A stretch of DNA of 64,000 nucleotides from a virus (IMGVR_UViG_3300034121_001395), one strand, 5' to 3'; shown: positions 2 to 51,257, counted from the stretch's first letter. Notes: generated by a model from the sequence alone, not told the origin. Program-made: numbers and translations.

Positions 2-382
2 TTTGGCATTGGGTTCGATCAGCTCTTTCAAGAGTTTGATTCAATTAACAAAGAAAATTCGAATGTTTATCCACCACACAACGTGGTTAAACTCGACGAA
101 GATCAGTATGTCATTGAGTTAGCAGTCGCTGGATTCGCTGAGTCGGAACTCGACATCGAAACTGTAGAAAATTCGCTAGTGATCACTGGTGAAAAGTCTG
201 AAAAAGACGAAAGAGAGTATGCCCACAAGGGTATTAGCGCACGTAAATTTACTCGGCGCTTCACGTTGGCAGAGCATGTTGTCGTGAGTGGTGCTTCTCT
301 ACAAAATGGAATCCTATCAGTCTCGCTTGAGAAACAGGTTCCAGAAGAGAAGAAACCTCGCAAAATTGTAATAAACAAATAA
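2..382 (+). CDS. hsp20: Small heat-shock protein Hsp20/IbpA (5'-truncated by window edge)
   Basis: Frame open from base 2: FGIGFDQLF..YPPHNVVK..IELAVAGF..HKGISARKFTRRFTL..NGILSVSL..PEEKKPRKI, the alpha-crystallin signature. Confidence 0.92.
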   Translation, partial: FGIGFDQLFQEFDSINKENSNVYPPHNVVKLDEDQYVIELAVAGFAESELDIETVENSLVITGEKSEKDEREYAHKGISARKFTRRFTLAEHVVVSGASLQNGILSVSLEKQVPEEKKPRKIVINK

Positions 383-44733: not shown

Positions 44734-45795
44734 ATGTCAAAGACTTCGCAGCTAACAGAATTAACAACAGGACTTGCACAAAATGATATTTTGCAAGTTG
44801 TTGATGTTAGTGATCTTAATATGGCCACAAGTGGCACAAATAAAAAGATCACTATAGGCAACCTAGCAACTGGTTTGGGTAATAGTGGTACTTTACAAGC
44901 AACAATACCAGCAGGCACGACAAGTCAATATTGGCGAGGAGACAAGACTTGGCAAACATTAAACAAAGCAGTTGTAGGGTTAACCAACGTTGATAACACA
45001 AGTGATGCAAATAAACCGGTATCAACAGCGACACAAACTGCATTAAATCTTAAAGCAAATCTTGCAAGTCCTACATTTACAGGAACAGTTACACTTCCAA
45101 CCGATGTTGTAATATCTGGTTCTAGTTCTGGTGATGCAGTGCGTATTACTCAAACTGGTTCTGGTAATGCTCTAGTTGTGGAGGACAGCGCAAATCCGGA
45201 CGCAACACCATTTGTGATAAACTCTAGCGGACAGTTATTTATTGGAAAAACGAGTAGCGAAGATACTGGATTAAGAACAATTGACATTATTTCAAATGGA
45301 GGTGCTTCCGTTGCAAACAACGGAAACATTAGATCCATACGCTGTGCAGATGAAGTTACTGGAATTATATATTCACAGGGGAGAACAAGAGGTAGTGCGC
45401 AAACACAAACAATTGTTCAAGCAGATGATAGTTTAGGCAATTTTGTTTGGTCTGGATATGATGGAGTCGATCAAATAGTTGCAGCTAGAATCTCCTCACT
45501 TGTAGACGGGACACCTGGAGCAAATGATATGCCGGGCCGCTTGGAATTCTCGACAACTTCTGATGGGGCGGCCACTCCGACAGAACGCATGCGCATCACT
45601 AGTTCTGGAAATGTTGGAATTGGCACTACCTCACCAAATTCTAAACTACACATCGCTGGAGACCTCACCGTTTCATCCGCTACCGTGGCGACTTCCGCAA
45701 CTGCCGGAACTAACGGTGATGTACCAGTTCAAGTCGCAGGATACCTAGTTGTAAACATCAACGGAACCGCTCGCAAGATTCCATACTACGCATAA
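44734..45795 (+). CDS. Tail-fibre-like structural protein
   Basis: VGLTNVDNTSDANKPVSTATQTALNLKANLASPTFTG and ERMRITSSGNVGIGTTSP repeats; TATAAATA upstream. Confidence 0.7.
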   Translation: MSKTSQLTELTTGLAQNDILQVVDVSDLNMATSGTNKKITIGNLATGLGNSGTLQATIPAGTTSQYWRGDKTWQTLNKAVVGLTNVDNTSDANKPVSTATQTALNLKANLASPTFTGTVTLPTDVVISGSSSGDAVRITQTGSGNALVVEDSANPDATPFVINSSGQLFIGKTSSEDTGLRTIDIISNGGASVANNGNIRSIRCADEVTGIIYSQGRTRGSAQTQTIVQADDSLGNFVWSGYDGVDQIVAARISSLVDGTPGANDMPGRLEFSTTSDGAATPTERMRITSSGNVGIGTTSPNSKLHIAGDLTVSSATVATSATAGTNGDVPVQVAGYLVVNINGTARKIPYYA

Positions 45796-45796
45796 T

Positions 45797-46005
45797 ATAA
45801 AAACACTTATCTCAAGCACAGAAGATTCTGCAACTATGAGTTCAAATTTGGTGATGTCATTCGGGTAGTTGAATATAGCAAGTCGCCGCCACAGGAAAGC
45901 GAAGAGCAAGCCCCAAAGCAACCATTCGACCATGAGGCAATGTCAGAAGCTGAGTACCAAAGTTGGGTGAGGCTATCTAACGCTAACATGCAACTTCGCT
46001 GTTAA
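45797..46005 (+). pseudogene. Degenerate small ORF after the fibre gene
   Basis: ATA for ATG plus a 1-nt shift restores (M)KTLISSTEDSATYEFKFGDVIRVVEYSKSPPQE..WVRLSN. Confidence 0.35.
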
Positions 46006-46165
46006 TATGCTTAATGGCGAGGGTGGTAATATCATCCCAATAAATAACCAAATTTACCATACCGTCCATTAATACTTGCCATGCCTCTCAACGATGCGCA
46101 CTTTGGTGGGTATTTTTGCATAAAAAATCATAAATTTGGCATTTTTAGACCTTGGAAGCACTAGA

Positions 46166-46275
46166 TTTCTCTATACGGGGCCTAACTTCGGGACCTTTTT
46201 TCACTTTTTTGAAAAAAGTTGTGTACTTTCTCTGCATTTTAGTGTATAATGACCATGTAAGCAACACAACACAAT
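46166..46275 (+). repeat. Repeated early-promoter cassette, copy 3 (heads the ncRNA array)
   Basis: TTTCTCTATACGGGGCCTAACTTCGGGACCTTTTTTCACTTTTTTGAAAAAAGTTGTGTAC-N18-TATAAT. Confidence 0.85.
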
Positions 46276-46362
46276 ATGAAAGAAACATTAGGAATTTTCA
46301 TCGGAATCAATGCAGCAGTTTGGTTCGTCATCTTTATCCAAACCATGAACGGTAGTTGGTAA
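46276..46362 (+). CDS. 28-aa hydrophobic peptide
   Basis: MKETLGIFIGINAAVWFVIFIQTMNGSW directly after the promoter. Confidence 0.45.
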   Translation: MKETLGIFIGINAAVWFVIFIQTMNGSW

Positions 46363-46366
46363 TCAC

Positions 46367-46455
46367 AAGAGTTGAACATCTTTTAAAAAGCTTTGAGCTT
46401 CGGGCACTCGTTAAACCGCTCTAGAGAGTTGAGCATCTCTTAAAACTGCTCACCA
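46367..46455 (+). ncRNA. Three tandem H-type pseudoknot units
   Basis: For example AGAGA-GTTGAGCA-TCTCT-TAAAAC-TGCTCA; ends in CCA. Confidence 0.55.
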
Positions 46456-46472
46456 CTTTCAAAAAACAATTT

Positions 46473-46635
46473 TCCCCTGAAGTATTGGCCCGCCAGTAGA
46501 TCTTCTAGAACAAACACTAAGTGAATCCCGGGCATGTGACCAGTTGGAGTTAACGCCACCGAAACATGAATAGCTTAGTCAATGATCTAGAATGAACTCT
46601 GGGAGACGAGGTTCGACTCCTCGCGGGGGACACCA
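46473..46635 (+). ncRNA. tmRNA-TLD-like, CCA-ended structured RNA
   Basis: Acceptor TCCCCTG/CGGGGGA, T-arm CGAGG-TTCGACT-CCTCG, ACCA end, long interrupted helix in place of the anticodon arm. Confidence 0.7.
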
Positions 46636-46652
46636 CTTTCAAAAACAAATTT

Positions 46653-46823
46653 AAGGTAATGCCCCAATCGTAAGAGACTGCAGCTCGAGAAGATAAGAAA
46701 ATTAAATGTGCAGATGGACTCACACAGCCGTTTCTGATGATAGGAAGACCCCAGGATTGCTCAGCAATAGTAAGGAAACCGAACATGCCCGTGTTTCATC
46801 AGCAACAAAAGTTAGGCACGGGA
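46653..46823 (+). ncRNA. Unclassified pseudoknotted RNA
   Basis: CCCGTG/CACGGG stem whose loop TCATCAG complements upstream CTGATGA; CTGCA/TGCAG stem. Confidence 0.45.
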
Positions 46824-46843
46824 AATTTTCAAAAAACAAATTT

Positions 46844-46949
46844 ACTGATGGAGGTTGCAAACGAAATCAGAGATAAAAGGAACGAGCCTCTTGTCCGCAG
46901 GGAGAGCGTTAAAAAGTTTCATGGTGCAATTCCATAGCCTGCGGTGCCA
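46844..46949 (+). ncRNA. tRNA-minihelix-like RNA ending in CCA
   Basis: CCGCAGG/CCTGCGG stem, ATGG-TGCAATT-CCAT T-arm-like hairpin, TGCCA end. Confidence 0.5.
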
Positions 46950-47009
46950 TTTCCAAAAAAAACAACAACAAATACAAATAGAATAACGACATAAGATTTT
47001 AAAACCTTC

Positions 47010-47140
47010 TCTATCGCAAAGCCAGTAGTCATGACCTGGTAGTGGCCTATAAGAATATTATTCAAAAGTCCGTTCAATTCGGAGGTGATAGAAACCTGGG
47101 AGGCTCCTCAGCCCCAATTGAAGCTGTAAAGCACTGAGGA
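47010..47140 (+). ncRNA. Unclassified structured RNA with T-loop-like hairpin
   Basis: TCTATCGC/GTGATAGA, GCCAG/CTGGT, TCCG-TTCAATT-CGGA and TCCTCAG/CTGAGGA. Confidence 0.45.
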
Positions 47141-47281
47141 TACTTTTAAACAACAAACACCAAACCATGAAACTATCGCATTTTTATCCACTGGCCATCT
47201 TGATATCACTATTTTTTGGAGTCTGTATGATTGGATTCATCAGCGCTCTGTTCAAAGCAGTCTATCTTTTCTTTAACTAAT

Positions 47282-47614
47282 ATGAACACACAACGAACAA
47301 TACTAAAGGTTGAAAATAACGAGGCCGGAAAAACAATAATCTTTCATTTGAGGCGTGAGGTAAAAACTCATAATTTGAGAGAGCGTTTGAAAGAGATGGA
47401 GTCTCCAGACTATGTTGGAAAATTTAAACGAGTTGACCTCTATGGCCGCCTTGGAAAAAATAATCCAAATCGTCACAAATATTCTATTTCTAGTCGTCGC
47501 TCAATCTTTCGCAGCCACACTAGAATTCGTTTAGAAGATGCATCACACATTGCAGTCTATGTAAACAACGTCGTGCGCTCTAAGTTTGGTGGTTATACTC
47601 TCGTCTGTTCATGA
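47282..47614 (+). CDS. Hypothetical protein
   Basis: ATG 47282 after a 37-aa membrane ORF (47167-47280); LYGRLGKNNPN. Confidence 0.55.
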   Translation: MNTQRTILKVENNEAGKTIIFHLRREVKTHNLRERLKEMESPDYVGKFKRVDLYGRLGKNNPNRHKYSISSRRSIFRSHTRIRLEDASHIAVYVNNVVRSKFGGYTLVCS

Positions 47615-48207
47615 TTCCGGTTTTTCCCTCTCATAAGACTACACTCGTATTGACTGCAGGCTTTCAGCCGTGTGGATTTTTTTCTGCTCGGTCTGCAATT
47701 CGAAACATGATGGTTGGAGGCGTAAAAGCCTATGACCAGTATGGAAACATACGAGACTGGAGCAGCTGGATCGCGAACGACGATCATCTCAGTCCAAACA
47801 ACCCTGCGCTGAGAAGTGTCGACACGCTGTGGGCAATTCCTACAATCGTGGTGGTTCCTGGCTATTTTGGTCACTACAAGCAAGGCAAAAAGCAGCCGCG
47901 CGCAATCAACCTTCGTCAGCTGTATTATATCTATGGAGGAGAATGTCAATATTGTCTAAAGAAAATTCCATACACTTCTGCGACTCGCGATCATCTCATT
48001 CCTCGCAGTCGTGGAGGCGGCAACAACGACGACAATATCGTTCTCTCTTGCAAAAAGTGTAATACCAAAAAATCAAACAAGTTTCCATATTTCAACATTC
48101 ACGGCTCTGAAGTAAAGCCTAAGATGCTAAAAGACATTGAGTTTAGCGCGCTTAGTGAAAAAGTTACGATTCGTGAAGAGTGGAAGGATTTTTTACAATA
48201 TAAATAA
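47611..48207 (+). CDS. HNH endonuclease (McrA-like)
   Basis: CQYC..TRDHLIPRSRGG..NIVLSCKKCNTKK. Confidence 0.88.
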   Translation: MIPVFPSHKTTLVLTAGFQPCGFFSARSAIRNMMVGGVKAYDQYGNIRDWSSWIANDDHLSPNNPALRSVDTLWAIPTIVVVPGYFGHYKQGKKQPRAINLRQLYYIYGGECQYCLKKIPYTSATRDHLIPRSRGGGNNDDNIVLSCKKCNTKKSNKFPYFNIHGSEVKPKMLKDIEFSALSEKVTIREEWKDFLQYK

Positions 48208-48229
48208 ATCACTTATAGATAAAAAAGAT

Positions 48230-48259
48230 GTTTACATGTGAGAGAGTTTAGTGTATAAT
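48230..48259 (+). promoter_or_regulatory. Early promoter upstream of the tRNA cluster
   Basis: GTTTAC-N18-TATAAT. Confidence 0.7.
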
Positions 48260-48495
48260 GTCTCTGTAAGCAACAAGAAACAAAAGTTTCATAACTGAAC
48301 GCCACATCAACTGCTACTGAAAGTTGAGAACGTCCGTGGTTGTACGGCTTGGATCACTCAGTGATGCGATGTCAAAGGTTTGTATATAGGAGTTTTCGGT
48401 CCCTATAAAAAAGTCATAGTTGATTGCAGTTGCAGCGCACATTTTTTGCGCTCCTCATTCGACATGCCAATATGATTAACCGATAAATTTTCAAT

Positions 48496-48569
48496 CGCGA
48501 GTTAGAGTAGTGGTTACTCGGCAGTCTCATAAGCTGCATAGGTCGGTTCGATTCCGACACTCGCAACCA
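48496..48569 (+). tRNA. tRNA-Met(CAT), initiator-like (C1:A72)
   Basis: CGCGAGT/ACTCGCA, GCAGT-CTCATAA-GCTGC, CCA. Confidence 0.88.
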
Positions 48570-48577
48570 TTTTATAT

Positions 48578-48673
48578 GCTAGAGTGTCCTGAATTGGTTA
48601 AAGGTCCTTCTTTATAAGGGGGTAGAATCGGTCATCGAGCCGTATGTGGGTTCGAGTCCCACCTCTAGTACCA
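48578..48673 (+). tRNA. tRNA-Ile(TAT) with long variable arm
   Basis: GCTAGAG/CTCTAGT, CCTTC-TTTATAA-GGGGG, about 23-nt variable region, A73, CCA. Confidence 0.78.
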
Positions 48674-51148: not shown

Positions 51149-51247
51149 CAATGTATAGTGTAGTGGTAGCACGCCCCAAGCAAGGGGTTTCTTATCCGAT
51201 AGGATAGGCGACAACGCCGAGGTGATGGTTCGATTCCATCTGCATTG
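51149..51247 (+). ncRNA. tRNA-like RNA with 6-nt anticodon loop and extra hairpins
   Basis: CAATGTA/TGCATTG, D-arm GTG-TAGTGGTAG-CAC, T-arm GATGG-TTCGATT-CCATC. Confidence 0.65.
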
Positions 51248-51257
51248 TTTAATTTTC

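Follow-up and report, generated by a model that had tools for sequence, protein, structure and literature searches.

A conserved tRNA-like RNA with an exchangeable arm in uncultured phages of apparent T4 type

The 'tRNA-like molecules' of T-even phages are rnaC and rnaD. Stable tRNA-like RNAs of these phages have been known since the 1970s, and to our knowledge no function has ever been assigned to them. rnaC (T4 species 1 RNA, 139 nt) sits inside the T4 tRNA cluster and does not decode; its canonical T arm abuts a 7-bp acceptor stem, and long hairpins stand for the D and anticodon arms. In the engineered tRNA scaffold, a cargo RNA replaces the anticodon arm and uses the processing and stability of the tRNA. 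D-armless mitochondrial tRNAs show that an acceptor stem, a T arm and one more arm make a viable fold. Y RNAs, some of which are carried by phages, are tRNA mimics that combine a T arm and an acceptor-like stem with a long helix for protein docking; YrlA ends in the long helix, and its acceptor stem is closed by a loop.

A mini-tmRNA consisting only of the tRNA-like domain (TLD) was described in mycobacteriophage DS6A (Hudson, Lau & Williams 2014, PMC4131195). According to that article, a TLD-only RNA inhibits tmRNA whether charged or not, perhaps by titration of SmpB (Mao et al. 2009, as cited in PMC4131195). The decoy concept is already published, for DS6A (PMC4131195). The DS6A gene lies between gp33 and gp34 (DNA pol III) and is unannotated in GenBank. 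The same phage also encodes an RtcB-like RNA ligase.

The RNA analysed here is encoded in a stretch of 64,000 nt of viral DNA (IMGVR_UViG_3300034121_001395; hereafter the window). The DNA polymerase of the phage is 44-46% identical to the enzymes of 'Phage C48C1' and cyanomyoviruses. Almost all coding in the window is on the + strand, the GC content is ~38%, and 21 tRNA genes are clustered at 48.5-56 kb (ARAGORN, Rfam). Judged from sequence, the source is a large uncultured phage of T4 type, and its nearest relative is the IMG/VR genome G001 (173.8 kb, 97% complete). The RNA gene is located ~1.9 kb upstream of the tRNA cluster, in a directly adjoining ~1.4-kb tract (45.8-47.2 kb) without convincing ORFs, where it forms one unit in an array of non-coding units rather than a gene between genes. 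A repeated element of ~110 nt precedes the array and contains TGTATAAT, an extended -10-like sequence; at least eight further copies (80-90% identity) are dispersed over G001. A promoter role is inferred for this element, and the transcript holding the RNA would putatively start there. A terminator-like hairpin lies on the upstream side of the putative promoter, and a hydrophobic mini-ORF (MKETLGIF...) follows the element. Within the tract, the abiF RNA motif is matched close to, but below, its gathering score (32.2 bits, with 37 required; E 0.003). A 42-nt stretch over this match has 90% identity with a site that bears no annotation in Salicola phage CGphi29, an unrelated phage. The match may represent a phage version of an RNA associated with defence.

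The sequence-only reading had described a tmRNA-like RNA with an acceptor stem, GAGA, a T arm and four arm helices, and every one of these parts was found where that reading had placed it (Table 1). The CCAG/CUGG, UUCUAGA/UCUAGAA, ACUAAG/CUUAGU and CAUGU/ACAUG helices are all present in the minimum-energy fold. The acceptor stem and the 5-bp T stem form a 12-bp stack and the T loop has 7 nt (UUCRANU), both as in tRNA. The RNA is also a tRNA mimic without decoding function, with an acceptor stem and T arm and no anticodon arm. The apical loop has 12 nt in the short arm, and the long arm (102 nt) is branched.

Table 1. Positions of the RNA, its parts, its neighbours and related elements (window coordinates unless a locus, accession or alignment is named)
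Feature	Position	Strand	Basis or remark
353-aa protein	44734-45795	+	collagen-like repeats
abiF-like motif match	46075-46111	+	Rfam
Repeated element, putatively promoter-bearing	46166-46276	+	TGTATAAT at 46243-50; upstream of small-RNA array
Terminator-like hairpin	46176-46190		
Mini-ORF	46277-46363	+	28 codons
Hairpin module, ~64 nt	46392-46455	+	GAGC...AGAGA-GUUGAGCA-UCUCU...GCUC
A/U-rich 5' leader AACAAUUU, U at -1	46465-46472	+	moves together with RNA module
RNA, whole	46473-46635	+	
Acceptor stem, 5' strand UCCCCUG	46473-46479	+	pairs with 46624-46630; one U.G pair
D-loop-like connector AAGUAUUGGCCCG, 13 nt	46480-46492	+	invariant UGGC
UUGG, possible local partner of CCAG	46485-46488	+	covariation
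CCAG, 5' strand of basal helix or 3' strand of local hairpin	46493-46496	+	covariation
Long interrupted arm ('cargo') replacing anticodon arm, 102-nt 'long form A'	46497-46598	+	fold and comparison
CUGG, 3' strand of basal helix	46599-46602	+	fold and covariation
GAGA connector, variable-loop position	46603-46606	+	invariant in types 1 and 3; AAGC in type 2
T arm CGAGG/UUCGACU/CCUCG	46607-46623	+	loop UUCRACU invariant; one stem pair G-C to U-A in type 2
Acceptor stem, 3' strand CGGGGGA	46624-46630	+	covariation
3' tail CA-CCA: two unpaired nt, then encoded CCA	46631-46635	+	comparison
U-rich trailer and linker CUUUCAAAAACAAAUUU	46636-46652	+	recurs at 46457-46473 and 46827-46843
Array unit of ~173 nt	46654-46826	+	between linker copies
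Next array unit	46844-46950	+	7-bp stem CCGCAGG/CCUGCGG
tRNA, 96 nt	48578-48673	+	ARAGORN Ile(UAU)
Non-canonical tRNA-shaped gene	51149-51248	+	Rfam tRNA, 40.9 bits
tmRNA of G001	L256:1501-1827 = G001:C1:9001-9327	-	RF00023
tmRNA of G004	L255 = G004:C1:120748-121074		RF00023
DS6A mini-tmRNA	L254:28478-28560 (JN698994)	+	
Chelatococcus asaccharovorans element	L152:3340-3406	+	67 nt
Acceptor stem	alignment columns 1-7 with 91-97		102-nt variants
Basal helix	alignment columns 21-24 with 66-69		102-nt variants
CUA/UAG helix	alignment columns 28-30 with 62-64		102-nt variants
Hairpin	alignment columns 32-39 with 52-59		102-nt variants
T arm	alignment columns 74-78 with 86-90		102-nt variants

Two details of the first description stood only in part. 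The RNA had been said to lack a D stem. An unpaired connector is possible, but CCAG has equal covariation scores for pairing with the downstream CUGG and with the upstream UUGG, and the latter pairing gives a 4-bp local hairpin, an analogue of the D arm. The long-range basal pairing changes from G-C to A-U in type 2 (see below). A8, G10 and UGGC of the connector are unchanged in all types, including the divergent type 2, and by analogy its GG could contact the T loop in the fashion of tRNA or tmRNA. The 3' terminus had been given as ACCA. The CCA is indeed encoded, but the stem is followed by CA-CCA and not by N-CCA. Every type 1 and type 3 variant ends in NN-CCA (NN = CA, CG or AG), and type 2 ends in CACAC without CCA. 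All 20 CCA-encoding tRNA genes of the window have one nucleotide fewer than the RNA between acceptor stem and CCA.

The flanks of the RNA resemble those of tRNAs at several points. U-1 is frequent before real tRNAs of the same phage as well, and CCA followed by (C)UUUC also flanks genuine tRNAs of the window. The leader AACAAUU(U) precedes the RNA in unrelated intergenic contexts too. The sequence after the tail is likely a 3'-processing region and array spacer.

Relatives were found by pattern scans of viral and metagenome contigs and with a covariance model. Together these gave 14 distinct sequence variants in ~30 uncultured phage contigs, all of one phage group. The variants fall into three types with lengths of 102 nt or 162-163 nt: type 1, as a short form (102 nt), a long form A (163 nt, the form of the window) and a long form B (162 nt); the divergent type 2 (102 nt), which is a second copy in genome G004; and type 3, in which a type 1 shell is recombined with an arm like that of type 2. 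The two paralogues of G004 lie ~50 kb apart. Beyond this phage group, three looser pattern scans of viral contigs returned only tandem tRNAs or chance matches, and the RNA found no match in cultured phages by megablast and blastn. When 185,579 prokaryote genomes were scanned for the pattern of GAGA plus the T arm, no homologue emerged, only chance CDS matches and ordinary tRNAs. On these comparisons the RNA is a lineage-specific family in a clade of apparently T4-like uncultured phages.

A chance find of the same genome scan was a tRNA-like element in Chelatococcus asaccharovorans. It has a 7-bp acceptor stem, no anticodon arm, a U-CCA end and identical GAGA and CGAGG-UUCAACU-CCUCG segments; its sole Rfam match is a weak one to tRNA-Sec (19 bits).

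Taken alone, the sequence does not fold with significant energy (z -1.26; 20 of 200 shuffles do equally well), so the case for the structure rests on comparison. Pairs were counted on the eight 102-nt variants with a five-helix structure of 27 pairs. In this alignment 98.1% of cells were paired and 10 of the 27 pairs had changed on both sides, covariation that rests largely on types 2 and 3 (a single sequence each) because the core helices are nearly invariant within type 1. None of 500 shuffles matched the real covariation, and controls with slid partners gave 0-2 double-changed pairs and 32-49% pairing. The two-sided changes occur in the acceptor stem (four of seven pairs), T stem, basal helix and hairpin, and include pairs 1-97 (U-A to C-G), 2-96, 6-92 and 7-91, one T-stem pair and four hairpin pairs. 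Three more pairs of the long arm covary between long forms A and B. Consistently, the minimum-energy fold of type 2 is exactly the proposed structure (z -2.79). Several pairs that are G.U when read on the + strand would become A.C mismatches on the - strand, which identifies the + strand as the transcribed one. The unpaired internal-loop motifs ACACUAA and AUAGC of the arm are invariant across types 1, 2 and 3. These comparative results indicate that the RNA is real and conserved, with a fold shown by comparison.

The same data bear on whether the locus is only a functionless relic, either a selfish repeat or a pseudogene in decay that stems from a tRNA or tmRNA. Its narrow phylogenetic range, the varying copy number and position and the loss of CCA in type 2 would fit a relic. 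However, ten compensatory pair changes preserve every helix across types, the nucleotides of T loop and connector are invariant, and no residual similarity to any tRNA of the window is found. A relic is therefore hardly credible.

The shell is defined as the first 24 and last 37 nt of the RNA. Comparison of long form A with long form B gives 97-100% identity in the shell and 61-66% in the arm. Because all variants come from closely related phages, much of such conservation in the type 1 shell could reflect recent descent or recombination rather than selection. Short forms, for example that of G001, have a 41-nt arm in place of the 102-nt arm. The unit of leader AACAAUU(U), RNA and trailer CUUUC has different settings from contig to contig: within the array, right behind a CDS, or flanked by a CDS on either side. 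In sequence comparison the RNA gene behaves as an autonomous module in which the tRNA-like shell stays constant and the cargo arm is exchanged, a pattern verified for the 14-variant family. The ~173-nt unit downstream of the RNA is present in all contigs with long form A and missing from G001-type genomes; with the linker UUUCAAAAA(A)CAAAUUU on both sides, it looks like a cassette gained or lost through recombination between linker copies. Some apical loops are palindromic (UGCA, CCAUGG, UCAUGA) and, in this small set of sequences, were noted as possible kissing-dimer sites. The architecture of a constant shell and an exchangeable arm is clean and comes with natural swap variants (short, long A, long B, types 2 and 3); since the helices covary and such variants exist, shell and arm are separately testable.

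Segment by segment, the RNA has the layout of the E. coli tmRNA TLD: a 7-bp stem, a connector with central GG (13 nt versus 14 nt), a long junction helix, a second connector of 4 nt, the T arm (5 bp, loop of 7 nt, UUCRACU) and the 7-bp strand again. The earlier comparison with the architecture of TLD plus helix 2 was thus fair for the layout, which follows that of E. coli ssrA except that a local 4-bp hairpin has as much support as the unpaired connector. Membership in the tmRNA family fails on the diagnostics examined. No member of the Rfam tmRNA clan (RF00023) matched at E<=10 over 45800-48600 or at the gathering score over the window, and ARAGORN called no tmRNA in the window or five related loci. 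As a positive control, the 83-nt TLD-only RNA of DS6A scored 43.2 bits (E 5e-14) with RF00023. The check proposed earlier with ARAGORN and the Rfam tmRNA and YrlA models hence gave no match to the RNA, although RF00023 detects the DS6A TLD. Unlike tmRNA, the RNA has no mRNA-like domain, no pseudoknots and no G3.U70. Position 3-70 is C3-G70 in 14 of 14 variants, in agreement with the earlier statement that G3:U70 is missing. The tmRNA consensus connectors (C)GAC and GGAC are replaced by CCCG and GAGA, and by CACA and AAGC in type 2. Also absent is the N73-CCA end, since types 1 and 3 have an extra nucleotide before CCA (NN-CCA) and type 2 has CACAC. The claim that there is no tag reading frame was borne out, as the short arm frames are not conserved between forms. 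A tag peptide was considered and rejected: the AUG frame has 9 codons in form A and 10 in type 2, form B and type 3 have no stop, and the short form of type 1 has no AUG.

The comparison with DS6A gives the same picture. Both are phage RNAs (~83-100 nt for the DS6A kind) with an acceptor stem, a GG connector, one helix, a T arm and no tag frame, in the same order of segments. In contrast, the DS6A RNA has G3.U70, CGAC and GCAC connectors and its RF00023 score, none of which is found for the window RNA, and the window RNA exists in several types with swapped arms.

Genuine tmRNA genes are present in the relatives. G001 and G004 each encode a full-length one-piece tmRNA (RF00023, 81.6 and 84.2 bits), located ~20 kb downstream of the RNA gene in window orientation. 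The G001 copy has G3.U70 and A-CCA, and ARAGORN calls it a tmRNA, with a predicted tag that is basic, of unusual length and has LA at its end. By synteny, a tmRNA gene should lie ~2-3 kb past the 3' end of the window. Because the relatives hold a one-piece tmRNA, the RNA is neither the tmRNA of the phage nor half of a two-piece one. A two-piece (permuted) tmRNA with a partner elsewhere, raised earlier as a possibility, was rejected for this reason; both acceptor strands also lie in one 163-nt unit, and the cyano_tmRNA model gave sub-threshold matches only (<=16.5 bits). With blastn-short, the RNA showed no similarity to the phage tmRNA, the phage's own tRNAs, T4 rnaC/rnaD or the DS6A TLD. By these sequence criteria the RNA is not a tmRNA, and a tmRNA-like outline by itself is no proof of tmRNA kinship. 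The comparison shows at the same time that this T4-like phage group brings a genuine tmRNA gene.

An RNA of this shape might, by analogy, be a mini-tmRNA and block trans-translation by binding SmpB (and EF-Tu), as the sequence-only reading had proposed. The layout of TLD plus helix 2 and the TLD-only precedent of DS6A (PMC4131195) speak for such a decoy. However, the RF00023 model that gives the DS6A TLD 43.2 bits finds nothing here at E<=10 and ARAGORN is silent; the RNA has C3-G70 instead of G3.U70, other nucleotides in place of the GAC and GGAC connectors, and an extra tail nucleotide or no CCA. The tmRNAs of G001 and G004 (G3.U70 read in the G001 copy) would be inhibited too, so that inhibiting trans-translation would be an odd strategy for phages whose close relatives carry their own full-length tmRNA. 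Sequence similarity to the phage tmRNA is lacking, and paralogues with swapped arms occupy several intergenic sites. No SmpB gene was found in the 97%-complete G001. The proposal of an SmpB/EF-Tu decoy is left without support by these results, and we consider it very improbable.

Other RNA classes fit no better. The tRNA model RF00005 had no match at E<=10 (45800-48600), and ARAGORN was silent on all forms tried. A cloverleaf tRNA was rejected on the ground that the RNA has no anticodon arm, only a 12-nt loop or a branched arm. An intron-containing tRNA, which had been named as a possible outcome, is likewise dismissed: removal of the arm leaves neither a D arm nor an anticodon arm, and 41-102 nt is too small for a group I core. 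The alternative of a Y-RNA-like mimic did not survive comparison. The RNA shares with YrlA and Y RNAs a T arm, an acceptor-like stem and a long helix, but it ends at an open acceptor stem, the opposite of the YrlA topology; YrlA gave no Rfam match, and no Ro/TROVE gene was found in the 97%-complete G001. No other Rfam family matched the RNA at the gathering score (window) or at E<=10 (45800-48600).

By analogy, the RNA most resembles T4 species 1 RNA and would belong to the kind of phage stable tRNA-like RNAs. Both are located in or next to the tRNA cluster of a T4-type phage, and the window RNA shares with rnaC the canonical T arm abutting a 7-bp acceptor stem, long hairpin structure for the D and anticodon arms and a non-decoding character. 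They differ in that rnaC has two large hairpins and U.U mismatches in the acceptor stem, whereas the window RNA carries a single arm, a connector that may be unpaired as in tmRNA, and an NN-CCA that is encoded. The covariance model (R1) found only a match of E 0.6 in T4, away from rnaC, and blastn-short gave nothing for rnaC or rnaD. Without a sequence relationship to rnaC, the resemblance is one of kind and not homology. Two other RNAs of the window, at 46844-46950 and 51149-51248, are of the same kind. The window RNA is also like the engineered tRNA scaffold in the swap of cargo for anticodon arm, though the latter is man-made, and it is unlike D-armless mitochondrial tRNAs, which keep a 7-nt anticodon loop and decode, in having a 12-nt loop or a branched 102-nt arm.

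With moderate confidence, the locus is read as a gene for a tRNA-scaffolded stable small RNA that is processed from an early small-RNA array by tRNA enzymes. Early transcription would run from the repeated promoter element through the tiny ORF and the array of small RNAs. RNase P would cut at the 5' end of the acceptor stem, and the 3' end would be trimmed back to CCA, as for neighbouring tRNAs with U-rich sequence after CCA. The shell would then shield the product from nucleases, on the tRNA-scaffold principle and as may hold for T4 species 1 RNA. The mature RNA of 102-163 nt would not decode and would probably not be aminoacylated; it would act in trans and bind a protein, with the arm setting the specificity or the shell being the binding part. 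The signals of the tRNA pathway are the canonical T loop, the 12-bp stack, U-1, CCA with (C)UUUC and the nearby cluster of 21 tRNA genes. Two features count against this reading. NN-CCA instead of N-CCA may weaken the contact of RNase P with the 3' end, and type 2, judged by its sequence, lacks CCA. If the shell is a handle for processing and stability, phages had the tRNA-scaffold principle long before engineers.

Alternatively, activity could reside in the shell instead of the arm. The shell would then be a decoy in the form of a tRNA 'top half' and sequester a host factor that recognises the acceptor end or elbow, such as a tRNA-targeting defence toxin with cleavage or modification of tRNA 3' ends as its action, and the arm would be a tolerated spacer. 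The shell stays constant while arms are swapped, and the unpaired A8, G10, UGGC and T loop are invariant even in type 2, despite its compensated helices. The abiF-like motif (32.2 bits, E 0.003) in the surrounding non-coding island hints at an anti-defence RNA island. However, a scaffold for processing and stability predicts the same conservation, the CCA expected of an acceptor-end decoy is missing from type 2, and the invariance of ACACUAA and AUAGC between types 1, 2 and 3 argues that the arm is no mere spacer. This possibility is regarded as unlikely. A broader version, held just as tentatively, is that a phage mimic of the acceptor/elbow half titrates a host tRNA-end binder (an immunity toxin or SmpB) early in infection, with arms that tune the partner, in an 'anti-defence RNA island' with abiF-like and antitoxin-like RNAs. 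As a decoy, the shell would represent a novel way for a phage to counter defence, or to manipulate translation, by means of RNA.

Processing by RNase P could also be an end in itself. In plant mitochondrial mRNAs, t-elements act as such punctuation, and the module might likewise be a cis-acting tRNA-like RNase P site that cuts polycistronic early transcripts, the excised RNA being a by-product. In several contigs the module lies between co-directional CDSs, 16-40 nt before the next start codon, and more than one copy per genome is possible, as would be expected of punctuation. On the other hand, a minihelix of acceptor and T stems would suffice for RNase P, yet an arm with conserved loops and covarying stems is kept, and the window copy stands among non-coding array units and not genes. 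Punctuation is thus thought quite improbable, and a trans-acting, tRNA-scaffolded stable RNA is still the preferred reading.

Other units of the array and its surroundings have features of their own. The next array unit, with a 7-bp stem around two hairpins (one with a 7-nt loop), is followed by UG-CCA-UUUCC and so has the stem-NN-CCA-UUUC layout of the tRNA-like RNA; its stem shows wobble-compatible changes in relatives. The ~64-nt hairpin module moves independently, lying before the tRNA-like RNA or after it (after in L018, L025 and L239), and its ACCA end is not conserved (AUCA, GGA).

In the tRNA cluster, a second non-canonical tRNA-shaped gene has intact acceptor, D and T arms and three small hairpins (44 nt) for the anticodon arm. 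It has no encoded CCA, its fold has a z of -3.17, and ARAGORN is silent on it. The 96-nt tRNA gene called as Ile(UAU) has a long extra arm and a score of only 40.8 bits with the Rfam tRNA model. Upstream of the non-coding tract, the 353-aa protein with collagen-like repeats has a C-terminus of the endosialidase-chaperone type, and it has short, highly similar repeat segments in common with minor tail proteins of actinophages.
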